A DNA stretch of 15,867 nucleotides from Bacteriovoracia bacterium. Lineage in GTDB: Bacteria > Bdellovibrionota > UBA1018 > JBFWNL01. Below the pieces are notes generated by a model that made no database searches, was not told where the DNA came from, and saw only the letters and a list, made by a program, of their open reading frames with translations. The position numbers were made by a program, and so were the translations under genes. Location: the NCBI GenBank assembly GCA_050251055.1, contig JBFWNL010000017.1:1-15867 (forward strand). Reading direction: 5' to 3'. Shown here one piece after another: positions 1 to 15,867 of this stretch (positions within the stretch are counted from its first letter, which is position 1; each line of letters begins with the position of its first letter).

Positions 1-340
1 CCGTAGATTCCACCGCCGACACCACCGAATGGGCCGCCGTACATGCCGCCGCCGAACGGACCAGCAAAGATTCCGCCGCCGATTCCGCCAAAGATTCCTC
101 CGCCGACACCGCCGCCGAACGGACCACCGTAGATTCCACCGCCGACACCACCGAATGGGCCGCCGTACATGCCGCCGCCGAATGGGCCGCCATATACGCC
201 ACCCATACCGCCGCCGAACGGACCACCGTAGATTCCACCGCCGACACCGCCGAACGGGCCGCCGTACATGCCGCCGCCGAATGGGCCACCAAACGTGCCG
301 AAGCCGCCACCGCCGCCCCAGCCGAAGCCGCCGCCACCAC
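1..340 (-). repeat. Intragenic Gly-rich coding repeat: 8 GPFGG units and three near-identical ~56-nt blocks
   Basis: The block ccgtagattccaccgccgacacc(a/g)ccgaa(t/c)gggccgccgtacatgccgccgccgaa starts at 1, 127 and 226. The offsets (126 and 99) are multiples of 3, and the block encodes FGGGMYGGPFGGVGGGIYG. Confidence 0.9.
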
Positions 341-1346
341 CGATTCCCGGAGGACCGCAAGGCACGCCGATCGTGGCACATTGGTTCAGGTAATCACCGT
401 ACATTCCAGAATACTTGCCCATCCACTTGGCTCCGAGCCAAGCGTTGAGACCCATGCCCACGCCGCCCATGATGGCGGGCAGGGCCGCGATCGCGTAGTC
501 GCCGAACTTCGGTTCGCGCGGCTTCATCGCTTCCATCAATTCACAGTTCGGGCAGTTCTTGCGGATTGAATTCAACTCCAACTGCGCCGCCTTGATTTCC
601 TCTTTAATGATTTCTAGCTCTTCTTCCGCGGCATCCGCGGCGTCGCAAGCTTCGTCGATCTTCATCGCCGCCTTGATGGACGGGCAGGCCTTCAAGCTCT
701 GCGCGCAGGCGCCAGAGATCCAGCTGATGTCATGCCCCTGGGCTTCGAAAAGCTGCACACAGGAAGCTTCCTGCTGACCGTCGGCACGCAGCTCGTCGAG
801 CTGGGCATCGGTAGTGATCCCGATACGGGCAAAGAGCGAGCGGGAGCAACCGCCGCTACCGACGCGAAGCTCTTCCATTACTAAGTTGTTATTGGCGTCC
901 ACCAGGTTTTCACGTTGATAAACCACGCGTCCACTGGCGTCGCGCACGGGCGCGTTACCGGCCATTTCCGGAACCAGTTGCCCGTCGGCGCCGCGTTTTT
1001 CTTGGGTCTTAGGAACGGATTTCGAAGGACGGCAGTCACAAGCCGAAGCCAAGTAGCCGTTCACGCCACCGGCCGGCTGCGCGACCGCGCGGCCGCGAGA
1101 TCCGCGACGGCTGCGGCTATCGCGGCTTCCACTCGTACGTCCGGAGGAGAGGCCACGGCATTCGCGATCCGACGTCTTTAGGGTTTTCTGGGCTTCGGCG
1201 CGATCCGCTTCCAATTCGTCCAACCGCTCTTGAATCGCAGCGATACGGGCGCCCGTTCCACCTTCCGCCAGGGCTCGGTTGCCTGGATCAAACACGAACA
1301 GGAACTGCGCGGCCATCGCCATCGAAATGATTTTCCGGAAATACAT
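1..1346 (-). CDS. Secreted/exported hypothetical protein with coiled coils, 12 Cys, a hydrophobic segment and a C-terminal Gly-rich (GPFGG) repeat; 3' end runs off the window (>=448 aa)
   Basis: Manual translation from ATG at 1346 (GAGG Shine-Dalgarno-like sequence upstream; alternative in-frame ATG at 1364) stays open to base 1: MYFRKIISMAMAAQFLFVFDPGNRALA-EGG...IAAIQERLDELEADRAEAQK...CPNC...YAIAALPAIMGGVGMGLNAWLGAKW...GGPFGGGMYGGPFGGVGGGIYG. Absent from the ORF track because no stop codon lies in the window. Confidence 0.9.
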   Translation of the reverse strand, partial: MYFRKIISMAMAAQFLFVFDPGNRALAEGGTGARIAAIQERLDELEADRAEAQKTLKTSDRECRGLSSGRTSGSRDSRSRRGSRGRAVAQPAGGVNGYLASACDCRPSKSVPKTQEKRGADGQLVPEMAGNAPVRDASGRVVYQRENLVDANNNLVMEELRVGSGGCSRSLFARIGITTDAQLDELRADGQQEASCVQLFEAQGHDISWISGACAQSLKACPSIKAAMKIDEACDAADAAEEELEIIKEEIKAAQLELNSIRKNCPNCELMEAMKPREPKFGDYAIAALPAIMGGVGMGLNAWLGAKWMGKYSGMYGDYLNQCATIGVPCGPPGIGGGGGFGWGGGGGFGTFGGPFGGGMYGGPFGGVGGGIYGGPFGGGMGGVYGGPFGGGMYGGPFGGVGGGIYGGPFGGGVGGGIFGGIGGGIFAGPFGGGMYGGPFGGVGGGIY

Positions 1347-1482
1347 GCCTTTTTCCTCTCTCATCACACTTCAGTCTTACGACTAAAATTCTCTCACCTC
1401 GTTTGAAACTTCTCCACTTTCCATTGGAGCCGGATCAAATCGAGTTCACTCAGCGAGCCTTAGAAAGCCTTCTCCATCAATT

Positions 1483-1510
1483 GGATCGGCGATTCGGTGC
1501 TCAAACTAAA
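1483..1510 (-). promoter_or_regulatory. Candidate sigma28/FliA-type promoter for the Gly-rich gene
   Basis: Minus strand reads TTTAGTTT-N12-GCCGATCC, against the consensus TAAAGTTT-N11-GCCGATAA; about 135 nt upstream of the ATG. Confidence 0.35.
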
Positions 1511-1620
1511 AGGAATTGCCTCTGAAGGCGAAGAAGAGGGGTCAAAAACTTGCCGGTCACGCGCCACTCCCACGGGGTACCACTACTTCATCACGCAGAT
1601 GCAACACTACTCTCCCCCAC

Positions 1621-1649
1621 AGGATGTGATTCTGTATGAAATTAGTCAA
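1621..1649 (-). promoter_or_regulatory. Candidate sigma70 promoter for the Gly-rich gene
   Basis: Minus strand reads TTGACT-N17-CATCCT, with a GTCA-N4-TGAC palindrome (1660-1671) just upstream. Confidence 0.4.
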
Positions 1650-1694
1650 GTATTATTTCGTCAAAAATGACACAGATCTAAGTACCTAAAAAGA

Positions 1695-1811
1695 TTACTT
1701 ATTCCTGGAACTCTTCACAGCTTCGCGCTTCTTTTTTTTGCGGTTTTTCAGGGCCGCCTGGCGCTTGCGCTGGATCATCTTGCGAGTAGAACGTTTTCTG
1801 CCTTTTCCCAT
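1695..1811 (-). CDS. 38-aa highly basic microprotein (candidate ribosome- or nucleic-acid-binding protein)
   Basis: ATG(1811)..TAA(1695) gives MGKGRKRSTRKMIQRKRQAALKNRKKKKREAVKSSRNK: 19 of 38 residues are K/R and only one is acidic. It is below the ORF-track size cutoff and has no clear Shine-Dalgarno sequence. Confidence 0.7.
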   Translation of the reverse strand: MGKGRKRSTRKMIQRKRQAALKNRKKKKREAVKSSRNK

Positions 1812-1841
1812 ACCCGCGTTGTCCGTGATTTCAGCAAATTA

Positions 1842-1863
1842 TTCAAGTCTTTAAGGACTTGAA
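1842..1863. promoter_or_regulatory. 22-bp palindrome between the divergent microprotein and CarD genes
   Basis: TTCAAGTC-TTTAAG-GACTTGAA has perfect 8-bp arms. Each arm supplies an outward-facing -35-like hexamer (TTGAAT on minus, TTGAAA on plus). Confidence 0.5.
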
Positions 1864-1997
1864 ACAATTGGGAAGAATGGGGACCAAGGCTGGTATTTTA
1901 AATGCCGCTCTGCTAGCCTTAGGGGGTTCCGGCATCCCGCATTACGCCGCCAGAGTACGCTAACGGATTAGAGTAACCAAGCTGCGAGGGTCAGACC

Positions 1998-2552
1998 ATG
2001 GAAGATACCAAAGAGAGAGGCGAGTTCGCCCCCGGAACCGAAGTCATTTACGGATTTCACGGTCGATGCTCAATCGAGGCCATTGAAAACCGCAACATCG
2101 GCGATCAGGCCATCCGTTTCTACAAACTTCAAGTCCAGAAACCCACGCTCTCGCGTTCCAAGAAATCGGACCCTGCCATTTGGCTGCCGGTCGATTCCGC
2201 GCGCAGACGCGGGCTGCGCATGCCGATGACCGTCGAAGCGGCGACTCAAATCTTCGCCATCTTGGGCAACCGCGAATACTATTTTTCCGTCGAGACCCCC
2301 TGGACGAAAATTCACTCCCAGCTCGAACAGACGATTTTCGAAGAGGGCGCCCTGGGCTTGGCCAAGGTCATGAGCTTTCTCTTCATCTTGAAGAGCCGTC
2401 AGATCGTGCCTTCTCCGGAAGTGATCCGTTTCAGCGAAATGATCCACAAGCAGCTCGTGCGCGAGTTAGCCGAAACCCTGCAGGATCAGATGAAGCCGAT
2501 CGAGGACAAGATCGCGTCCTTGCTCAAGAACAAGCTCAAGGCCGACCACTAA
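1998..2552 (+). CDS. carD: CarD/CdnL family transcriptional regulator (RNA-polymerase-interacting), divergent member
   Basis: The N-terminal CarD/TRCF-RID signature is present (FAPGTEVIYGFHGRCSIEAIE...FYKL...IWLPVDSARRRGLR). It is followed by a helical C-domain with a Trp at the expected wedge position (TPWTK) and ending LVRELA. GAGGG Shine-Dalgarno sequence upstream. Confidence 0.85.
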   Translation: MEDTKERGEFAPGTEVIYGFHGRCSIEAIENRNIGDQAIRFYKLQVQKPTLSRSKKSDPAIWLPVDSARRRGLRMPMTVEAATQIFAILGNREYYFSVETPWTKIHSQLEQTIFEEGALGLAKVMSFLFILKSRQIVPSPEVIRFSEMIHKQLVRELAETLQDQMKPIEDKIASLLKNKLKADH

Positions 2553-2567
2553 GCCGCCCCCCGAGTT

Positions 2568-3806
2568 ATGCGGTCGGAGCGTCGCGATTCTCTCGCTTAC
2601 ACCATCATTATAGTAGGTTTCGCTGCCGGCTTGCTCGGCGAGCGGCCCGTTTCCGCCGCGCCCAAGGCCACGGCAAAGCCTCCCGCAAAAGCAAGCCCCG
2701 CCAGCTCCCCCTCGCCGAACGAAACCACGCCGGCGCCCTCTTCCACCTTCGAGCGTAAAGGCACCCGCTGGGGGCTCCTTCCGATCGGCAACTACTCCAC
2801 CGACTTCGGCTTCACCTTTGGATTGCTCGCACGCCGCTTCGACTACGGGCAATCGGGCGTGCAACCGTTCGAGAACCTCACCACCTTTCAAGGGCAATAC
2901 GCCAGTGGCGGCGCGAAAGACTTCCTGCTCTCCTACGAGCAAACGAATATTTTCGGTTCTACCTGGCGTGGCGCCTTAGACCTTTATTACGCCCGCAACG
3001 AGTTCCGCAGCTACTTCGGCGTGGGCGACCACACCACGCTCCCGGCCACCTCGCCTGCGCCTAACTATTTCAGCTACGCGCACCAGATGGGTTACGTACA
3101 CGTGGCCGGAAGGAAAAAAATCTCCGAGCTCTTCGACCTAGAGCTCGGCGTTTCCGAAAACTTCTCGCTCTCGCACCCCGCGAGCAACGTTTCCAAGTTC
3201 GGAGAAGACTTTGGTCCCACGCCCGTGCGGGCGACCTATACCGCTTTTAATACGGGTCTCGTGATCGAACGACGTGATTCTGAATTTATCCCTTCCAAGG
3301 GCTATTTCGCCGCGGCTTCCGTCACCTTCACGCCGGGGTTTCTCGGTAACATCGACAGCTGGGCGCGTCTGAACGCCGTTTACAAGCGTTTCGATTCCTT
3401 CATCGATGACCGCTGGCTATATCTGGCGAGCGAGGTGAAGTTCGCGGCCGCGAGCGTGGACGCCCCCGTTCACGAAAAAGCCCGACTAGGTAGCTGGGGT
3501 ACGCTCCGCGGAATGGCGTACAACCGATACCTTTCCAATTTCTCGGGCAGCTTGCGTACCGAGCTCCGCACCCTACCCATTCGCTGGGAAATTTTCGGCT
3601 TACCCCTCAAAATCGGCGGCGGCATTTTCGCCGAAACGGGCAAGATCGGCGATAGCTTCGGCCGAATCTTCACCAATACCAATCACTTCGCCTGGGGCTT
3701 GACCGGCTTCGGCAGCTACTTCACGGACGACTTCGTCGGCAGCGCCGACCTAGGTTTCTACGACGGAAACACGGCTTTTTACATCCAGCTTGGTCATTCG
3801 ATTTGA
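2568..3806 (+). CDS. Omp85/BamA-TamA family outer-membrane beta-barrel protein without POTRA domains
   Basis: Signal peptide (..PVSA/A), then a Pro/Ala/Ser/Lys linker, then LPIGNYSTDFGFTFG as the first strands. Also present: ERRDSEFIPSKG (D.rD....P..G motif), LRGMAYNRY (VRGF/Y-lid equivalent) and C-terminal strand FYIQLGHSI. Confidence 0.85.
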   Translation: MRSERRDSLAYTIIIVGFAAGLLGERPVSAAPKATAKPPAKASPASSPSPNETTPAPSSTFERKGTRWGLLPIGNYSTDFGFTFGLLARRFDYGQSGVQPFENLTTFQGQYASGGAKDFLLSYEQTNIFGSTWRGALDLYYARNEFRSYFGVGDHTTLPATSPAPNYFSYAHQMGYVHVAGRKKISELFDLELGVSENFSLSHPASNVSKFGEDFGPTPVRATYTAFNTGLVIERRDSEFIPSKGYFAAASVTFTPGFLGNIDSWARLNAVYKRFDSFIDDRWLYLASEVKFAAASVDAPVHEKARLGSWGTLRGMAYNRYLSNFSGSLRTELRTLPIRWEIFGLPLKIGGGIFAETGKIGDSFGRIFTNTNHFAWGLTGFGSYFTDDFVGSADLGFYDGNTAFYIQLGHSI

Positions 3807-3817
3807 CCGCAAACCGT

Positions 3818-4837
3818 CTACGGGCGATCGTGTTCGTTGCCCGCACGCATCGTGCCCACGCGCGAGATCGCCTGGTGCAACTCTTCCACCGTCGTGACGG
3901 CCGGTAGACCAGCGGTTTGTTCCGTACCGTCCAGCAGCACGAGATACTCGAGCGTCGTCGGATACTCCGGATTCGCCTGCTGCAAGGCTTGCCACACTCC
4001 GCTCGGCAGCGCGGTCGAGGCGGACTGCGATCCGTTCAAACCGCCAATCTGTACGATCGTGACCCCACTGGCGATGCCGCCTTCATCTGGATTCTGAGCC
4101 AAGATGATCTCGGGCGCTTCGTCCACGGCATTCACGACGGCAACCGGTCCCGACGGCGGCGGCGGAGAGGAGAACAAAACCGAGCTAGTGGACTCTTCCG
4201 CTGGGTCTACCCGAAGGTTTCCATCAAACATCATGCGGAATTCACGAGGAGGCGGCGCTCCGCCTGCCAAACCGGTCGGAAGGAAAGGAACGCGTCCGTA
4301 GGGGCTCTGATTCGCCGATAGATTCAAAGTCCCATGCGAATTCGTGAGGGAAACCGCGTAAGCAGAGCCCTCCGGTTGCGCACACCCGTCTTGCAGGGAC
4401 AGCACGCCGTTAGTGAAGGAGCGTCCGGCGATGAGATTCACGTCGAAGGTCCCGACCAAGGCCGGTTGGCCCAAGCGGATCTCGGTGAGCTTGGGCGCCG
4501 GGAAGTCCACATGCACCACATCGTTACCGAGCCCCTCCGACACGCCACGATCTAGCCGCAACGAAGGCGCGCAAATCTTCATACTCACGGAGGCGGGCGG
4601 TGCGGGTTGATGAGGAGCAATTGCCAAAGCAGCTTGCGCGACGGGCGCCACTACATCACCGCGGAGGCCCGGCATATAAATCAAAGCCGCCGTGTGGATC
4701 GGCGCCCCCACGCGCGTGCCCCCCGACTGCACCGACGCGTCGCGATCACGGGTCGAAAGCGAGCAGCCCGCACCCGCGAGTGCCGCCAATATCAAAGCTA
4801 AATACGAACGCACCATCTGATTCGTAAACGGAGTCAT
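3818..4837 (-). CDS. Hypothetical lipoprotein (339 aa)
   Basis: N-terminus ..RSYLALILAALAGAG/C resembles a lipobox. The start overlaps the upstream stop (TAATG at 4835-4839) and has GAGGGG upstream. No recognisable domain. Confidence 0.7.
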   Translation of the reverse strand: MTPFTNQMVRSYLALILAALAGAGCSLSTRDRDASVQSGGTRVGAPIHTAALIYMPGLRGDVVAPVAQAALAIAPHQPAPPASVSMKICAPSLRLDRGVSEGLGNDVVHVDFPAPKLTEIRLGQPALVGTFDVNLIAGRSFTNGVLSLQDGCAQPEGSAYAVSLTNSHGTLNLSANQSPYGRVPFLPTGLAGGAPPPREFRMMFDGNLRVDPAEESTSSVLFSSPPPPSGPVAVVNAVDEAPEIILAQNPDEGGIASGVTIVQIGGLNGSQSASTALPSGVWQALQQANPEYPTTLEYLVLLDGTEQTAGLPAVTTVEELHQAISRVGTMRAGNEHDRP

Positions 4838-5703
4838 TAATTGCCCCCTCGTTTTTTTGGATCATCCGCCAACGGAAACGTGAAGAACCCGATGTGATAC
4901 ACCGAATCGCAGTCCTTCGCGTTTGCGTTCTTCCCCAACTGCTCCACCCGGTTGATGGCTTCATCCATGATTGCCTTGATTTTCAAGAAGTCGGCCTTCG
5001 GCACGGCCACCGTATACGACGTCATGTCGCGCTCTTCCGCCGTCATATTCTCGAGCGAATCGACGGCCAGCCCTAGCATCTGTTCGTGGTACTCGCGCAT
5101 CGCGATGCGGAACACGCCGCCCACGCAGTTTAGGCTCTTGTCCGGATGCTCGGCACGGCCGTCCGGCAAGAGCTTGATGTAACCCTGTTCATGCAAAAAC
5201 TTTAGCGCCTCCTCAATCTCACCCAGCGGAACATGTTTTTTCAGGTGCGACTGAATCCACTTCGCATCGGCGCGAAACTCCGGCAGGCCGGTCATTTCGC
5301 GGATCGCTACGTAGTACCAACGCGTGAGGTAGCGATGCACTTCCACTTCGTTCGGATTGAGCTTACGGTAGTAGCGGAACTTACGAATACGCTTGAGCGC
5401 CCCCAGCCGTTCGGCCTGTGAGCTCGATTCGCCGATCGTGCGTAGCTGTTTGAGGTAGTTCCCCTGCGGGCCGGTGAGCTTCAGCGCTGGGATCATTTTC
5501 TCGAGCGCCCTGTCGGTGAGGGGGCGCTTGCCTGAAAGCATCATGGATAGGTACGCGGGAGATACACCGACCTCCGCGCAGAACGAGCGCAGCGAGAAGC
5601 CCTTCTTGAGCGACTTCTGGTACTTCAGCCATGCCTGGAGGAACTCCCGATAGTCGTGGAAGCGAAAGATATTCGGGATTTCCGCTAAACGTTCCGTATC
5701 CAT
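4837..5703 (-). CDS. TIGR02147 family protein (N-terminal XRE-like HTH, DUF4423-type C-domain)
   Basis: Motifs typical of this Fibrobacter/Bdellovibrionota paralog family: IFRFHDYREFL, FSLRSFCAEVGVSPAYLSMMLSGKRPLT, WYYVAIREM, YHEQMLGLA, ERDMTSYTVAV, VYHIGFFTFPL. Confidence 0.9.
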   Translation of the reverse strand: MDTERLAEIPNIFRFHDYREFLQAWLKYQKSLKKGFSLRSFCAEVGVSPAYLSMMLSGKRPLTDRALEKMIPALKLTGPQGNYLKQLRTIGESSSQAERLGALKRIRKFRYYRKLNPNEVEVHRYLTRWYYVAIREMTGLPEFRADAKWIQSHLKKHVPLGEIEEALKFLHEQGYIKLLPDGRAEHPDKSLNCVGGVFRIAMREYHEQMLGLAVDSLENMTAEERDMTSYTVAVPKADFLKIKAIMDEAINRVEQLGKNANAKDCDSVYHIGFFTFPLADDPKKRGGN

Positions 5704-5733
5704 CTAACCCCTATTAACTGACTATTAAAGTAC

Positions 5734-5762
5734 ATTATTACATTTCGGATTTGCAGTGTCAA
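5734..5762 (-). promoter_or_regulatory. sigma70 promoter of the TIGR02147-lipoprotein operon
   Basis: Minus strand reads TTGACA-N17-AATAAT with TGn (extended -10) before the -10. It is 30 nt upstream of the ATG, and an AGGGG Shine-Dalgarno sequence follows. Confidence 0.65.
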
Positions 5763-5956
5763 CAAACTGACCTAATCCCTGTGAACAATTAGAAAAACTC
5801 CTATAGATTTTGTTTATAAATATCATAAAGATATATATACTATAAATTAAATTAATTTATTTTTTTTAAATTTTGAAGTTAATTTTTTACTTTTCTGCCC
5901 CGTTTAAAGTGCATCTGATCAGCAGAGGTGGGGGCACCCCCTCATGCCCACGCAAA

Positions 5957-5984
5957 TCAGGTTTTCCCCAGAAGTTCTCGATAA
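5957..5984 (+). promoter_or_regulatory. Candidate sigma28/FliA-type promoter for the peptidase-kinase gene
   Basis: TCAGGTTT-N12-CTCGATAA, ending 20 nt before GTG 6005; partial match to TAAAGTTT-N11-GCCGATAA. Confidence 0.35.
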
Positions 5985-6004
5985 GTCGGAAGAGGGGGAG
6001 TGAA

Positions 6005-9000
6005 GTGCACCAAGGCCAGATTTTCAGCGCAGTACTGCTATTTTTGACGAGCGCTAGTGCGCTCGCGTGGCCTCCTGTGTCCTCGCTCTACTCTGACCCC
6101 GCCGAGCGCGACATTCTCCGCACGCTGGAAGCCCAAAAAAATAGGGTCATCCCCGAAGCAGAATCCCCCGCGCTCTACAAAACGATACAAACCGTCTTCA
6201 AAGATCTTTCCGAAGCGAAGGCCCGCCTGACGAGCGACCAGGTCCTCAGCATCGAAAAAGTATTCATTCTAGACAGTGACGACATCAACGCCTTTGTTTA
6301 CTCCCCTTCCGTACCCGGCGATACCGTGCACCGAAACTACGTATTCGTCACGCGGCGAATGATCCACGAAATGGCGGGCGGTGATCCATCGGATCTGAAC
6401 GCTGTGGCGGCTCAACTGATGGTCAAACGCAACGCCGGCATCCTCGCCCACGAAGTCGCCCATCCCATGAACAACCTCGCGAACGCGCTCTCCCATTCCC
6501 AAGCCAAGGAGATCCGCGCCGATTTAGAAGCTTTGCAGATCTTAGACGAAGCCGGCTACCCCGCCGATAGCTTACACGACGCGCTAGAAACGATATATGC
6601 CGCCGACGAGAGAATGACCAAAGCCGGGATCGGCAACCTGGGAGGGGCTTTCTCCAGCACTCATCCGGAGGCGAAAGTCCGGCTAAGCGTTCAACGAATG
6701 GCCATGACCCAAAACCGTTTCCAAACAGGCCGTTTTTCGTCCGCCATGCCTCGCCCCGTACCGCCCGCCTTAACCTCCGAGCTCCGCACTTCCGCCGCCA
6801 TCATTGCCCGACGGAATGCGGAAGCGAAGGCCGCCTTAGAAAAGGCGCGTGCCGCCCCGGCAACTCTACTGGACGCATTTTCGGAAATGGAGAGGATCCT
6901 CCGCGAGTCCGACCAGGACCACCGGATAAAATATAATCGCCTCCTTCTCCAGATCGACGAGATGCTCATTGCGAAGGGGCAGGGGCTTTCTCCCGCCGAG
7001 CAAGAAAAATTCCAGGCGTTCACTCGGTGGATTTCCCAGGATGAAGTCAATTTTCAAAAAATATTTACCGACCCCAAAGAGATCCAAGCGGCGCTCGGGC
7101 GCCCATCGCCCAGCCACTTTCAACTCGTAGAAAATATCCCGGCGATGCAGACCCCTAGCTACTTCACTTACGTCCGGGAGAAAATTATTGCCGATATCCC
7201 AAAAAGTAAGCAGGATTCGGTCGCCAAGCCTCTGCTTGCGCGTTTGACCAAGGTCGTGCCAGACCGCGCGATTTGGACGGAGTTTCGCCAAGATCTGGGT
7301 GAAGCTATCCTGCGTGACATGCGGGCCGTGCCCAACATTTCTATTTTCTATGCGAGGTTACTAGCGGACCTCACGCCAGAACATCGGCTCAAAGTAGCGC
7401 AAATTTTCTACACCGACGTCCTGCCGAAGCTCTCAATGCTCGAACGCGTTCGCTTTTTGACCAATCTCTCTGGCGACTTCTACGATCCTACCTTTTTCCG
7501 AAAGCCAACCGCGCCCACCGCAAAAACCCGTGACGAAATCGCGAAAACCCACCGCCTTCTCGCCCAGAATCCGAAGTCCACCCGTGAAATCGCCCAGCAC
7601 ATCTGGGACAACCGGGGAGCGCACGCGGCGGCGGAGGTCACCTCCACGTTCAAAGCTACCCGCATTGACTGGGATCTCGTTTTCCAAACGCTGGGAATCA
7701 ATCCGCAAACGGGCCGGCGAGAACTCAATCAGGCCGTCAAAGCATATACCCAAACGGACGCCTACACCGAACTACTCGTTTGGTATCGCGACGAAATACA
7801 AGCAAACGCCGAGGCATACGCGCGAGGCCTTGCGCCCCGCTGGGCGGATCGCGACCTAGCCCCCCATCTAAGCGGGGACTTCAACCCGCGCATAAAAGCC
7901 GATCCCAGCTTACATACGCTCGCCACCCGTTACATGGCGGGTAACTATACTTTGTCCGTCGAAGGACTGTTCCGCCAAACCTACGGCGAGCGCCTGACCG
8001 AAGCCATTCGCGCGCTTCCCCCGGGTTCCTTCGACCTGCCGACGCTCACCCGAATTCATTCCGGAATCATCGAGAACTTAATCGGCAAGCTGCCCGAGAC
8101 CGACGCCGAGCCCCTCTGTGACATCCAGGCCAAGGCCATTCGAAGCACGCCGCTGCCGGCTGACGCCAAGCAGAAACTCTTGCGACAGATCTTTATTGAT
8201 TCCCCTCCCGTTGGGACGACCGTTCCTGGTCTGTTCTCTCGCACGGGCGATCAGGCCGGCTGGTTAAGAAACGGAGTTTCCGACGAACCCGCCCGGCAAA
8301 CGATACGACTGCTAGTCGACTCTGGCATCGGGAAGTCCACGATCGATATCCTGAACCAAGCGCGCTTCGGCCCCGCCCGGGCCGCCGGCAAAAACGAATG
8401 GAGCCATACAGACCTGCTGGAGCGCTTTCACAAGGACATCATCGCCGACATCCGCAAGGCATCCACACCGGCGGAGCTGCAAAATGCCGCCGACGCTTTA
8501 TTCAAGACTGCCGCCGACGACCGAAAGCCTCATCTCAATACCCGCCTGATCCGGCAAATCAAGGCCGCTTTCGGGGAATCCGCGCTATCCCTGAGGTTGG
8601 ATCCCGACGAGGCGCTTCGGCTCTTCGAGCGGCTGACCGAGTCCGGCGCGTCCGCGGAAACCGATGCCTTCTTCGAAAAACTAGTGGCGCGTTCCTTCGC
8701 CGGTCCCTTGGACGCCACCCGGGCGCGTAGGCTCGACCAGGTGCTCGCTACGGCCCGGCTCCGTGACCAAGGCACCCAAATCCAGCTCACCCGCCGGCTG
8801 ATCGACGCCCAGCTCGGTGAACAGGCGCTCGAGGCGATGACCACCGAGCGCGCCGTAAATCTATTGGCGCTGGTCGACCGGTACGTGCCGAAAGCCAGTG
8901 GGGCCCGCGATACGTATCTGGAGGAACTGGCCTGGAAGATCTCCATCCGCGACCCCCGCTTGCTCCGGCATATCGAATCGTTGAAAAGCACCAACTGGAC

Positions 9001-10732
9001 GAAAATCAATCCGCTCCTCGTGAACTTCGCTTCTTCCGTCAGCGAAGGCATGCACGACCTCCCGCCCGCCACGATCGACGACCTCATCGACTACTTCATC
9101 GACCCCCATGGGCAGCCCCTGCCTGACTCCGTGCTAACCTGGCTACGCGCCCAAGCCACGGACGCCTTCCGTCGGAACTTTCCCAACCCCAATCGCGCGA
9201 CCTTGGCGACGCGGGATAAGTTCCTCGCGGACCAATTAGACAACTTGAAACTCAAGCTCGAAACGTTCGCCTTGGATGCCCAGCCCGAAGAAAGAATTCC
9301 GATTCTCGAGTCCCTACTGAACGCGGGCAAGCAACCCTACGCCAAAGCTCCGGGCTTTCCCGAGAACGTCATCACCAAACTCCTGAAGTTGTCCCCGGAT
9401 TCTTCGGAAGCGAAAACCCTCCGCGCCTACTTGCGCTCCGCCCCCCCCCACGAACACTCGACCACGCTTTCTTACCTCTTAAGCATGCGGGGCCAGGACA
9501 AAAGTACCGTACGTAGCATCTTCGAGGCATTCGGGCCTCCGGGAAAGAAAGGGGCGCAGTTCGCCTCCGTATGGGAGCTGCTCGATGCCCGCTATCGGAA
9601 AGAACTCGAAGCCGTAAAGGACCGGGCTAAGGCGCTAACCAAGTCCGAAGTGGAGGAAATTCTCGCCAAAACGCTCACCCAGGAAGAGCTGACCAAAATC
9701 AGGAAAGTGGAACGAGTGGTGGGCAGCGCCAGCATTAAGACCGCCGTCTTGGTGGAGCTACACGACGGCCGGAAGGCAGTGGCTTTTCTGCAATCTCCGC
9801 ACGCCGAGCTCCAGATCAAAACCAACCTGGAATTCGCCCAGAAATTCCTCCAAGAACTCCAAAAAGAAGGCCTCCAGTCAGAATCCACCCTGGTCTCCCA
9901 GTTCATCGATGAAATCCGCGCCGTAATGCTGGAAGAACTCGACATGACCAAGGAAGCCGCCCGGATCCGTGAAGCACAGGCCTTCTACCACGGCCTTAAC
10001 TCCGATCCGAAAATAAAAAAGACCCTGGGCGAATGGCGCTTTGAAGTTCCGGGCGTGGTATCCGACTTCAAGGAACGTCAAAACCTGATCTTCGTCGACT
10101 ACGTCGATGGCGTGGGATTCGACGCGCTTCCCGAAGGCGTGGCCAAGGCGCAGGCTGGCGAATCCGTCGTCCACTCCACCCTCCGCGGAATCTTCGGTCG
10201 AGGCTGGTTCGATCGTGATCGGCACAAAGGCAATAACCGCTTCAACTACGGGCGCCGGGTCATCCATCCCATCGACTTTGGACAGGCGGCCACGCTCGAT
10301 AACCTTCGTTCTCCTTTCAGCGCAGATGACCGCTACCTATTCGCCCAGTTCTCCAGAGCCGTCGACGAGAAGAACGCCACCGCCGTCGTCGACTTCGGGC
10401 TTCGCATTGGAACGAAAAGCAACGCCCCCTCGGCTGATCGGACCGCACTCGAAACCGCGCTTCGCCAAGTGCTCGGCCAAGAAACAAACATGAAGCGGAC
10501 GTACGTGCAGATCTTGGAAACATTTTCAAAACATGGTCACCCCATCGACTCAAAATTCTCGTTTGGCGTCATGAAAGCCCTGATGATCCTGTACGGTGAA
10601 AACTACGCGACCCCCGAAGGGTTCAGGACATTGATGTCCGGCGAAATACGCTCAACTCTCGTCGGAAAGCTACCGCAATTGATCAAAGACGAAGGCGTGG
10701 GCGCCTGTATTAGGCGGATCCTGGGACGGTAA
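6005..10732 (+). CDS. Large secreted fusion protein (~1575 aa): M48-family Zn metallopeptidase, long helical region, ABC1/UbiB/AarF-type atypical kinase
   Basis: The likely start is GTG 6005 (GAGGGGGAG Shine-Dalgarno; signal peptide MHQGQIFSAVLLFLTSASALA/W). M48 motifs: DINAFV, GILAHEVAH (HEVAH at 6449-6463), EIRAD..A..IL..AGY, STHP...R. UbiB-like motifs: GPPGKKGAQ, GSASIKT, ELDMTKEA, DYVDG, GWFDRDRHKGN, IDFG. Confidence 0.9.
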   Translation: MHQGQIFSAVLLFLTSASALAWPPVSSLYSDPAERDILRTLEAQKNRVIPEAESPALYKTIQTVFKDLSEAKARLTSDQVLSIEKVFILDSDDINAFVYSPSVPGDTVHRNYVFVTRRMIHEMAGGDPSDLNAVAAQLMVKRNAGILAHEVAHPMNNLANALSHSQAKEIRADLEALQILDEAGYPADSLHDALETIYAADERMTKAGIGNLGGAFSSTHPEAKVRLSVQRMAMTQNRFQTGRFSSAMPRPVPPALTSELRTSAAIIARRNAEAKAALEKARAAPATLLDAFSEMERILRESDQDHRIKYNRLLLQIDEMLIAKGQGLSPAEQEKFQAFTRWISQDEVNFQKIFTDPKEIQAALGRPSPSHFQLVENIPAMQTPSYFTYVREKIIADIPKSKQDSVAKPLLARLTKVVPDRAIWTEFRQDLGEAILRDMRAVPNISIFYARLLADLTPEHRLKVAQIFYTDVLPKLSMLERVRFLTNLSGDFYDPTFFRKPTAPTAKTRDEIAKTHRLLAQNPKSTREIAQHIWDNRGAHAAAEVTSTFKATRIDWDLVFQTLGINPQTGRRELNQAVKAYTQTDAYTELLVWYRDEIQANAEAYARGLAPRWADRDLAPHLSGDFNPRIKADPSLHTLATRYMAGNYTLSVEGLFRQTYGERLTEAIRALPPGSFDLPTLTRIHSGIIENLIGKLPETDAEPLCDIQAKAIRSTPLPADAKQKLLRQIFIDSPPVGTTVPGLFSRTGDQAGWLRNGVSDEPARQTIRLLVDSGIGKSTIDILNQARFGPARAAGKNEWSHTDLLERFHKDIIADIRKASTPAELQNAADALFKTAADDRKPHLNTRLIRQIKAAFGESALSLRLDPDEALRLFERLTESGASAETDAFFEKLVARSFAGPLDATRARRLDQVLATARLRDQGTQIQLTRRLIDAQLGEQALEAMTTERAVNLLALVDRYVPKASGARDTYLEELAWKISIRDPRLLRHIESLKSTNWTKINPLLVNFASSVSEGMHDLPPATIDDLIDYFIDPHGQPLPDSVLTWLRAQATDAFRRNFPNPNRATLATRDKFLADQLDNLKLKLETFALDAQPEERIPILESLLNAGKQPYAKAPGFPENVITKLLKLSPDSSEAKTLRAYLRSAPPHEHSTTLSYLLSMRGQDKSTVRSIFEAFGPPGKKGAQFASVWELLDARYRKELEAVKDRAKALTKSEVEEILAKTLTQEELTKIRKVERVVGSASIKTAVLVELHDGRKAVAFLQSPHAELQIKTNLEFAQKFLQELQKEGLQSESTLVSQFIDEIRAVMLEELDMTKEAARIREAQAFYHGLNSDPKIKKTLGEWRFEVPGVVSDFKERQNLIFVDYVDGVGFDALPEGVAKAQAGESVVHSTLRGIFGRGWFDRDRHKGNNRFNYGRRVIHPIDFGQAATLDNLRSPFSADDRYLFAQFSRAVDEKNATAVVDFGLRIGTKSNAPSADRTALETALRQVLGQETNMKRTYVQILETFSKHGHPIDSKFSFGVMKALMILYGENYATPEGFRTLMSGEIRSTLVGKLPQLIKDEGVGACIRRILGR

Positions 10733-10753
10733 TACCCGCGCGAGCAAGGGACC

Positions 10754-10795
10754 AAAGCAAAAAAGCCCCGATCTAGTTTTACCTAAATCGGGGCT
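10754..10795 (-). terminator. Rho-independent terminator of the rRNA operon
   Basis: Stem AGCCCCGAT/ATCGGGGCT (10764-10772 and 10787-10795), followed on the minus strand by TTTTTGCTTT, just downstream of the 5S gene. Confidence 0.85.
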
Positions 10796-10806
10796 GAGTA
10801 ATTTAA

Positions 10807-10924
10807 TGGGGGCATCGCGCTAGTCTAACACCGAGTTTCCTCGGCACTACATTCGCCGCAGAGGAGCTTAACTTCTGAGTTCGGAATGGGATCAGGTGGA
10901 ACCTCCTCGCCATCGACACCCCCA
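10807..10924 (-). rRNA. rrf: 5S rRNA
   Basis: Minus strand TGGGGGTGTCG...CCACCTGATCCCATTCCGAACTCAGAAGTTAAGC...CGATGCCCCCA; conserved CCGAAC loop C, paired termini, about 118 nt. Confidence 0.95.
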
Positions 10925-11079
10925 AACTTTATAAAATTTGGGAGATCTTTAGCACTGAACAGAGTGATGTTAGGTTTATCGTTCAAGATATTTTCGAACT
11001 AAGTAATGTTGCGAATCGACTATATTCGATTCCTAACTCACAGAACTTTCAGGGTTCTGAGAATAGGGAAGAATAAGAA

Positions 11080-14061
<2,982 letters not shown>

Positions 14062-14316
14062 GCTACTTCACTCTCCAATTTCGATTTCTCGAAGCTGAAT
14101 CATGAAGCACTTATTCTTCGCCTATTCGCAGAACCCTGAAATACTTTTGATATGCTCCGTTTAACTTGAGCTCATCATCGGCACTTCAGGTTTATATTAC
14201 GTGTTCTCTATTTTGCTATACTTGAGAGACTCCAGAAACTTAGACCCTCGCTTCGATTGCTCGAAGCTTAGTCAGTAGTTTCATAAATCATAATTAATCA
14301 ATATCACTCTATTCAA

Positions 14317-14328
14317 TTGTCAAAGATC
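14317..14328 (-). promoter_or_regulatory. boxA-like antitermination element in the 16S-23S spacer
   Basis: Minus strand GATCTTTGACAA resembles the rrn boxA GCTCTTTAACAA and lies downstream of the spacer tRNA, as usual. Confidence 0.7.
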
Positions 14329-14436
14329 TCCAACTCGCGCCGACTTTGTTAATGCATCGTCACGAGTCCAAATCGCCGAAGCGATCCGCAAACTTGTAAG
14401 GAGAAGAGGAATTTTCCGAGCTCGAGATCCAATAAA

Positions 14437-14513
<77 letters not shown>

Positions 14514-14655
14514 TTCCCACGGCTCAGGGTCCAATTCCTCTTGAGATGAATTCCTTGGTTGAAAAAGCGGACGTATTCTCGTTTCGGTTACGCTTGCGCG
14601 CACGACGAAACGTCTAGACCTAGTGAGCTGGACAACCGATTACTCGGCGTCAGTG

Positions 14656-15867
<1,212 letters not shown>

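Follow-up and report, generated by a model that had tools for sequence, protein, structure and literature searches.

On contig JBFWNL010000017.1 of a Bacteriovoracia bacterium, an organism of predatory type (assembly GCA_050251055.1), a stretch of 15,867 nucleotides (positions 1 to 15,867 of the forward strand, hereafter the window) carries a gene (6005..10732, +) for a protein of about 1575 amino acids, in which an N-terminal M48 protease, a helical middle and a C-terminal UbiB-like kinase domain are joined in one polypeptide. In this UbiB-like domain the lysine of strand β3 is absent, and a lysine is found in the nucleotide-binding loop at the position equivalent to Lys233 of the kinase WNK1. 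The domain is probably an active ATPase or kinase-like enzyme in which the relocated lysine, K1289, would be paired with the αC glutamate E1361, as suggested by residue positions and their co-variation among relatives. Residues are numbered throughout from the first codon of the surrounding open reading frame (ORF), 5873..10732.

The segment harboring the rearrangement (9719-9793, +) lies in the frame of this ORF and is translated as VGSASIKTAVLVELHDGRKAVAFLQ. An earlier note on this DNA had claimed that the β3 lysine is replaced by phenylalanine, that a lysine has appeared in the nucleotide loop and that the other catalytic elements are retained, and the codons agree with it in each respect. 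F1305 (TTT, 9785-9787) takes the place of the canonical lysine inside the β3 strand VAFLQSP (9779..9799, +), while K1289 (AAG, 9737-9739) is located in the loop GSASIKT (9722..9742, +). The αC glutamate E1361 (9953-9955) is found in the ExD/αC segment EELDMTKEA (9932..9958, +), which also provides the glutamate of the ExD motif, E1355. The catalytic loop DRDRHKGN (residues 1447-1454; 10211..10234, +) contains D1449, H1451 and N1454 together with the family-specific D1447 and R1450, and the DFGQ motif (residues 1468-1471; 10274..10285, +) contains D1468 and the family-specific Q1471. The KxGQ-type motif of the N-terminal extension is present in the form K-G-A-Q, within KKGAQ (9545..9559, +), with K1226 and Q1229.

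The assignment of both sites rests on an L-INS-i alignment with the two separate canonical ABC1 proteins encoded elsewhere in the same genome, in which K1289 is placed opposite the Ala/Gly of ASASIAQVH and AAASLGQVH, and F1305 opposite the β3 lysine of VVIKVQRP and LALKIQYP. The sole sequence match in the PDB, Rv3197 (5yjz), gives the same pairing at both sites, but with a weak E-value of 0.32. The canonical control consisted of the second paralogue of the query genome and of one ORF, the best match to ABC1, per genome for 30 genomes out of 41 sampled from the phylum; one of these 31 ORFs, with an in-frame TAG, was gapped at both columns. All 30 scored ORFs carry the β3 lysine, and their loop residue is Ala (23), Gly (6) or Ser (1). 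An identical copy of 9440-10679 lies on a contig of another sample within the same landfill-metagenome study; the stretch was found solely in DNA contigs of this one study, with no RNA dataset listed.

The rearrangement is a property of a whole protein family. When the domain was searched exhaustively with HMMER against 1.84 billion representatives clustered at 50% identity, 679 proteins were obtained at E ≤ 1e-3, 141 of them at E ≤ 1e-30. The query and the best 150 of the 679 matches, all of which belong to one family, were aligned (151 sequences, median protein length 1613 amino acids). At the loop column 133 Lys, 8 Arg, 2 Asn, 1 Ser and 1 Gly are found besides 6 gaps. The β3 column is occupied most frequently by Met (41), Leu (31), Ala (28), Ser (11), Tyr (10) and Gly (6), followed by His (5), Phe (4), Val (4), Gln (2), Glu (2), Ile (1) and Lys (1), with 5 gaps. 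The respective column entropies are 0.53 bit for the loop lysine and 2.9 bits for the β3 site. Since the loop column is nearly all Lys or Arg while the β3 column holds 13 residue types, the rearrangement is confirmed as real and not a product of chance. The catalytic elements are equally well kept, with D1449 conserved in 148/150, H1451 in 147/150, N1454 in 146/150 and D1468 in 150/150 sequences. The αC position E1361 is acidic in 144 of 148 (139 Glu, 5 Asp), E1355 is retained in 147/148, and the KxGQ residues Q1229 and K1226 in 140 and 130, respectively, of the 140 non-gap sequences. Entropies and columns together thus describe an old lysine site that has been relaxed, and a new lysine and an entire catalytic set that are constrained. 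Among 22 genome-derived loci the loop lysine is found in 22, the β3 lysine in one Omnitrophota locus only.

Positional equivalence of K1289 with the WNK lysine follows from published mappings. According to the available portion of one review (PMC4718504), Ala339 of ADCK3 corresponds to Gly52 of the protein kinase PKA, the pair Lys358-Glu411 to Lys72-Glu91, and Asp488 to Asp166. The available portion of Kannan et al. 2007 (PMC1821047) places Lys233 of WNK1 at position 55, in the G-loop/β2, records a G55-to-A change for UbiB and describes the CAK-chloro kinases as having independently shifted the charge from position 72 to position 55. Because A1286, three residues before K1289, aligns with the alanine equivalent to Gly52, K1289 occupies the Gly55-equivalent position, which is the WNK site. 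In the AlphaFold2 (AF2) model of the domain, strand β1 comprises model residues 87-96 and is followed by a three-residue turn, strand β2 starts with K1289 (model residue 100), and F1305 (116) is located within β3. By alignment and published mapping, the query thus combines a lysine at the Gly55-equivalent position with the absence of the β3 lysine, as WNK kinases do.

The UbiB-like domain including its KxGQ N-terminal extension spans 9494..10672 (+; PF03109, E 6e-15). The Pfam ABC1 profile (PF03109) matches residues 1248-1476 with 55.5 bits against a gathering cut-off of 22.9. TIGR01982 matches residues 1208-1537 with 62.4 bits against an equivalog cut-off of 487.55, and PRK04750 reaches 35.9 bits against a cut-off of 667; with scores this far below the equivalog cut-offs the domain belongs to the UbiB family, but is not the UbiB of the ubiquinone pathway or its orthologue. 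The AF2 model of residues 1190-1619, built from 60 aligned sequences, has a mean predicted local distance difference test score (pLDDT) of 92.1 and a predicted template modelling score (pTM) of 0.91. In this model the domain is of the UbiB/ABC1 fold, COQ8A type, including the KxGQ extension: superposition on COQ8A (7udp) with VIA-align gives a Z-score of 29.5 and a root mean square deviation of 3.7 Å for 352 residues (model residues 20-410 on chain residues 258-644), and Foldseek matches it to 5i35 with an E-value of 3.8e-14 and template modelling (TM) scores of 0.64/0.70. The best kinases outside the UbiB family, RIO and APH, reach Z-scores of about 12, and eukaryotic protein kinase structures about 10. 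No Pkinase match was obtained for the query protein in Pfam at E-values up to 1, and the domain is not a member of the eukaryotic protein kinase family, resembling WNK in its arrangement only. Of the residues that characterize the UbiB family, the catalytic Asp, the Asn and the DFG Asp are in place (D1449, N1454, D1468); the β3 Lys-αC Glu pair is incomplete, with Phe1305 at the lysine site and the partner E1361 present.

Further evidence is provided by the exceptions. The earlier note had suggested testing whether gain of the loop lysine co-varies with loss of the β3 lysine, and co-variation is borne out by the family alignment: the loop is Lys or Arg in 141 of 145 non-gap sequences, the β3 lysine occurs in 1 of 146, and the lone member with a β3 lysine has a glycine in the loop. 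For phylogenetic placement, 8 fragments shorter than 330 amino acids were removed, and the remaining 143 domains were aligned with two canonical paralogues by L-INS-i, the three tested columns being deleted. The lone member, P0097, reads AALKVQRP at β3 and GSASVGVVV in the loop, where the residue matching K1289 is Gly. Its sister is P0119 (loop Lys, β3 Gln; support 0.99), and P0097 is nested in clades with supports of 0.998 and 0.933, all other members of which are loop-lysine types; in a second tree the corresponding nesting has supports of 0.979, 0.999 and 0.93. The protein is present on three contigs, and no relative closer than 33% identity was found. In our reading P0097 has exchanged one lysine for the other and so returned to the canonical arrangement.

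Three other members, P0021, P0022 and P0058, lack the β3 lysine and carry Asn, Asn and Ser, respectively, in the loop, and in exactly these sequences the αC Glu column holds Gly, Ser and Thr. In each case the sister sequences bear a lysine (supports 0.908, 0.987 and 0.957), so that three separate loss events are counted; the placement of P0058 differs between the two trees. Among the 142 sequences ungapped at the tested sites, a basic residue at one of the two lysine sites goes together with an acidic αC residue in 139; both are missing in three, and no sequence has only one of them (Fisher p = 2e-6, uncorrected for phylogeny). This pattern is as expected if a single lysine, at either of the two sites, works together with the αC glutamate.

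How the rearrangement came about is indicated by relatives in which both lysines are found. An Omnitrophota locus (L026, 2-6508) contains an ORF that is open at either end and exceeds 2169 codons; its internal UbiB-like domain reads GSASIKT in the loop and VVKVKRP at β3. A search with this domain gave 42 proteins (P0153-P0194) of 1357-3709 amino acids, most of them with precomputed Pfam matches to both PF01435 and PF03109; the few with names are recorded as Omnitrophota/Omnitrophica and, in one case, as Endomicrobium. These giants share with the query the combination of M48 and ABC1 domains, great length and the GSASIK loop lysine, but differ in their canonical HADPH catalytic loop, their even greater length and a UbiB-like domain that is often internal. 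All but one (P0184) passed the profile threshold and entered a second tree of 187 sequences, rooted on the two canonical paralogues as only outgroups and again calculated without the tested columns. Together with L026, 40 of the proteins form a clade of 41 with a support of 0.882, in which the β3 lysine is kept in 41/41 and the loop lysine in 39/41, the remaining two having Ala; this share of loop lysines may be overestimated, because the pattern by which L026 was found itself contains the loop lysine and the follow-up search was word-based. P0191 (loop Lys, β3 Leu) is the earliest branch of a second clade that holds the whole query family (n = 144, support 0.998). The node uniting the two-lysine clade with the query-family clade has a low support of 0.44. 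In one genome of the phylum (G027) the ABC1 profile has 14 matches; at least seven of these lie in frames that stay open for 1671-1842 amino acids, so that giant UbiB-like proteins seem to have multiplied there as paralogues.

As both lysines occur in 39 of the 41 relatives, the loop lysine did not arise together with the loss of the β3 lysine. The most economical reading of the trees is that the loop lysine was gained in the giant M48-UbiB lineage, that both residues coexisted, and that the β3 lysine was lost once. The path would then lead from canonical UbiB proteins with the β3 lysine only, via giant M48-UbiB proteins that gained the loop lysine and kept both, to the Bdellovibrionota-type clade that lost the β3 lysine, within which one lineage would have swapped back and three would have lost both lysines along with the glutamate of the αC column.

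Residue positions, fold, conservation and co-variation together suggest the following chemistry. K1289, at the third-glycine position and the start of β2, would hold the α- and β-phosphates of ATP and pair with E1361, thereby taking the job of the canonical β3 lysine, here Phe1305. D1449 would serve as catalytic aspartate and N1454 and D1468 as metal ligands, while the KxGQ glutamine, Q1229, would place the attacking water or the acceptor, as proposed for COQ8 (10.1101/149823, in the part available, where this glutamine is suggested to hold the attacking water). The domain would thus still bind ATP and either hydrolyze it or transfer from it. A WNK-like relocated lysine in place of a dead kinase, as put forward in the earlier note, is favored by the position of K1289, by the co-variation and by the near-invariance of the catalytic Asp, the Asn, the DFG Asp and the KxGQ Gln.

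Several observations weigh against this reading, and two other explanations draw on them. As the loop and β3 lysines coexist in 39 of the 41 giants, the loop lysine serves a purpose of its own and is not necessarily a mere substitute. The domain could therefore be active with K1289 still in an older, separate role, such as a contact to the γ-phosphate, a lipid or a substrate, and with R1450 just after the catalytic Asp, D1447 two residues before it and Q1471 after DFG compensating for the missing β3 lysine; we regard this as unlikely. Its strength is that the loop lysine predates the loss and that candidate compensators are at hand: in the query-family clade His1447 is replaced by Asp, Asn or Glu in 135/143, Pro/Leu1450 by Arg in 105/143 and the DFG+1 residue by Gln in 133/140 sequences, and these residues are absent from the canonical and the two-lysine proteins. 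The residue following the loop lysine has in addition become Thr in 106/143. P0191, however, the earliest branch without the β3 lysine, has the canonical HADPH loop and lacks Q1471 as well as the threonine, so that the loss came first and these changes after it, and position 1450 is Pro in 19/143 members that nevertheless lack the β3 lysine. The glutamate of the αC column is absent exactly where the loop lysine is absent, and P0097, which regained the β3 lysine, lost the loop lysine only and kept R1450 and Q1471. A Lys or Arg at β3+2, found in about 43% of the clade, was also considered as a compensator and is ruled out in the query by Gln1307.

Alternatively, the domain might be a pseudokinase without ATP turnover, a scaffold or ligand-binding module of an exported protease, in which the conserved motifs would be retained because folding, or the binding of a ligand other than ATP, requires them. 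Absence of the β3 lysine is the formal hallmark of such proteins. By an operational definition, a pseudokinase has lost one or more of the β3 Lys, the catalytic Asp and the DFG Asp with nothing to compensate; here the β3 Lys is gone, and co-variation supports K1289 as its candidate substitute. The catalytic Asp, the metal-binding Asn, the DFG Asp and the KxGQ Gln are near-invariant over 150 representatives that are at most 50% identical, and pseudokinases usually let their catalytic residues drift. This argument is tempered by P0021, P0022 and P0058, which tolerate the loss of both lysines and of the αC-column glutamate and still keep D1449, N1454 and D1468, so that conservation of these three residues is no proof of activity. 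P0021 is a less clean case, since it has a glutamate one residue upstream of the αC column. The Asp of the ExD motif is variable, being retained in 63/148 sequences. Moreover, the signal-peptide-like N-terminus would put the protein outside the cytoplasm, and ATP is not known to occur in the periplasm. UbiB proteins in general are weak ATPases, activated by lipids and phenols, in the available part of 10.1101/149823. The lysine exchange of P0097 and the losses in which lysines and αC glutamate disappear together, on the other hand, imply selection on a Lys-Glu pair, and the WNK kinases themselves are a precedent for an arrangement wrongly called dead (PMC4718504, available portion). On balance a pseudokinase seems quite improbable, and the active domain with a relocated lysine remains the preferred interpretation.

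In comparison with known systems, the closest likeness in arrangement is to WNK1, where the β3 lysine is likewise absent and Lys233 occupies the site equivalent to Gly55, where β2 begins (PMC1821047, PMC4718504, PMC13686953, each in the portion available). The query also keeps the αC Glu, the catalytic Asp and the DFG motif, as WNK does. Unlike WNK, it has a UbiB fold with a KxGQ lid, is bacterial, predicted to be exported and fused to a protease, and two-lysine intermediates survive among its relatives. As far as we know, a route via such a two-lysine intermediate has never been documented for WNK. The choline/aminoglycoside-type CAK-chloro kinases carry Arg55, Met72, Gln186 and a Phe at position 91 (PMC1821047, available portion); in contrast, the query family has Lys55 and a variable position 72, keeps the Gly of DFG with a Gln at DFG+1, and keeps the αC Glu. 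With COQ8A/ADCK3, E. coli UbiB, Rv3197 (MABP-1) and MSMEG_1954 the query shares the fold, the KxGQ motif and an Ala-containing nucleotide loop, as well as the ExD/αC Glu, the DxH.GN catalytic loop and the DFG motif of canonical UbiB proteins; these differ from it by their β3 lysine, by Ala or Gly in the loop and by a length of 430-590 amino acids. The closer of the two canonical paralogues in the same genome ends in a hydrophobic tail.

A functional parallel may be drawn to plastoglobules and cyanoglobules, where the M48 protease PGM48 and ABC1K proteins are found on the same lipid droplet (PMC8956952, PMC12223511, in the parts available). PGM48 (or sll1280) and ABC1K are separate polypeptides of plastids and cyanobacteria, whereas in the query an M48 and an ABC1 domain share one chain. 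By this analogy the M48-ABC1 fusion may point to a shared function at lipid surfaces. We know of no link of the PGM48/ABC1K system to predatory bacteria. Within the full-text literature searched, no report of a lysine relocation in UbiB or of giant M48-UbiB proteins was found. The arrangement as such has precedents in WNK and CAK-chloro. New are the protein family, the intermediates in which both lysines survive, the revertant and the losses that are coupled.

No residue serves more often than the β3 lysine for judging a kinase dead, and its absence here should serve as a warning against annotating M48-UbiB proteins as pseudokinases. If the proposed relocation is true, an independent shift to the same loop position has taken place in the ancient and poorly understood UbiB branch, where at least 141 clusters, defined at 50% identity, have Lys or Arg in the loop. 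With surviving intermediates that hold both lysines and a revertant found in nature, a ready system would be at hand in which to test how a catalytic residue that is essential can change its place, and the finding delimits an uncharacterized family of giant exported M48-UbiB proteins. A more far-reaching picture is speculative and rather doubtful: the family could represent a complete natural mutant cycle (β3 lysine only, both, loop only, back-swap, neither with Glu loss) with a redundant intermediate, its members could be exported protease-ATPases acting as weapons or lipid handlers that use ATP of the prey, and the emptied β3 pocket could have been re-used for a regulatory ligand. WNK uses its emptied β3 pocket for chloride.

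The distribution of the family is patchy in the phylum, as 11 of 201 genomes in the phylum sample, this one included, have a match at E ≤ 1e-25. A pattern scan of species genomes gave 11 loci, four recorded as Oligoflexia, two as Bdellovibrionales and one each as Bdellovibrio sp., Pseudobdellovibrionaceae, Bdellovibrionia, Elusimicrobia and Omnitrophota. The exported M48-UbiB family is concentrated in Bdellovibrionota, with the longer form in proteins recorded as Omnitrophota.

With regard to the gene itself, the longest frame begins with TTG at 5873, and GTG 6005 is preceded by GAGGGGGAG, a strong ribosome-binding site. The ESM Atlas entry of the protein begins at residue 45, which is GTG 6005, while the gene call in the sequence database (P0002, 1551 amino acids) starts at residue 69 (GTG 6077) and leaves out the signal peptide. 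GTG 6005 is therefore the likely start. The N-terminus encoded by 6005..6067 (+), as read from the sequence, resembles a signal peptide in that SASALA comes after a hydrophobic core. Judged crudely by hydropathy, 81 of 109 full-length family members have a hydrophobic 12-mer at the N-terminus, and 99 of the 109 have HExxH, a set that includes the shortened P0002 version of the query protein. We infer that the M48-UbiB protein is exported by the Sec pathway.

The M48-type metalloprotease domain (6182..6688, +) matches PF01435 with 28.8 bits against a cut-off of 20.3. Its motifs are HEVAH (6449-6463, +; residues 193-197), SQAKEIRAD (6497-6523, +), which contains E213, and STHPEAKVR (6656-6682, +; residues 262-270), so that profile match, HExxH, downstream Glu and HP...R motif of peptidase family M48 are all found. 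In 46 aligned sequences the His, Glu and His of HExxH and the later Gln, Glu, Asp, His, Pro and Arg are at least 90% conserved. As in M48 proteases in general, these residues would provide the zinc ligands, with E213 as the putative downstream Glu ligand. The middle of the protein (6689..9439, +) is helical and solenoid-like in the AF2 model of residues 45-1189, which has a pLDDT of 82.6 and a pTM of 0.70 and consists nearly entirely of helices; this region is without family assignment. Foldseek returned for it only generic helical repeat proteins with query TM scores of at most 0.22, Pfam gave no match, and the ESM Atlas scores of at most 0.81 were uninformative.

Upstream of the M48-UbiB gene and in divergent orientation, a protein with a helix-turn-helix (HTH) and a DUF4423 domain is encoded at 4837-5703 (-), and a weak Omp85-like match (23.1 bits, just below the cut-off of 24) is located at 2568-3806 (+). 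The other neighbors in the window are a weak CarD-like match and two ORFs without family. At 10 related loci, the 16 flanking ORFs have nothing in common, and neither the Omp85-like nor the HTH/DUF4423 gene recurs there; since the neighbors are not conserved, no clue to the function of the M48-UbiB protein is obtained from an operon. Downstream, a ribosomal RNA operon (10807-15867, -) converges with the M48-UbiB gene. It consists of the genes for 5S rRNA (10807-10923, -), 23S rRNA (11077-14062, -) and 16S rRNA (14664-15867, -), the last being cut by the window end, with tRNA-Ile(GAT) (14437-14513, -) as the only spacer tRNA found.

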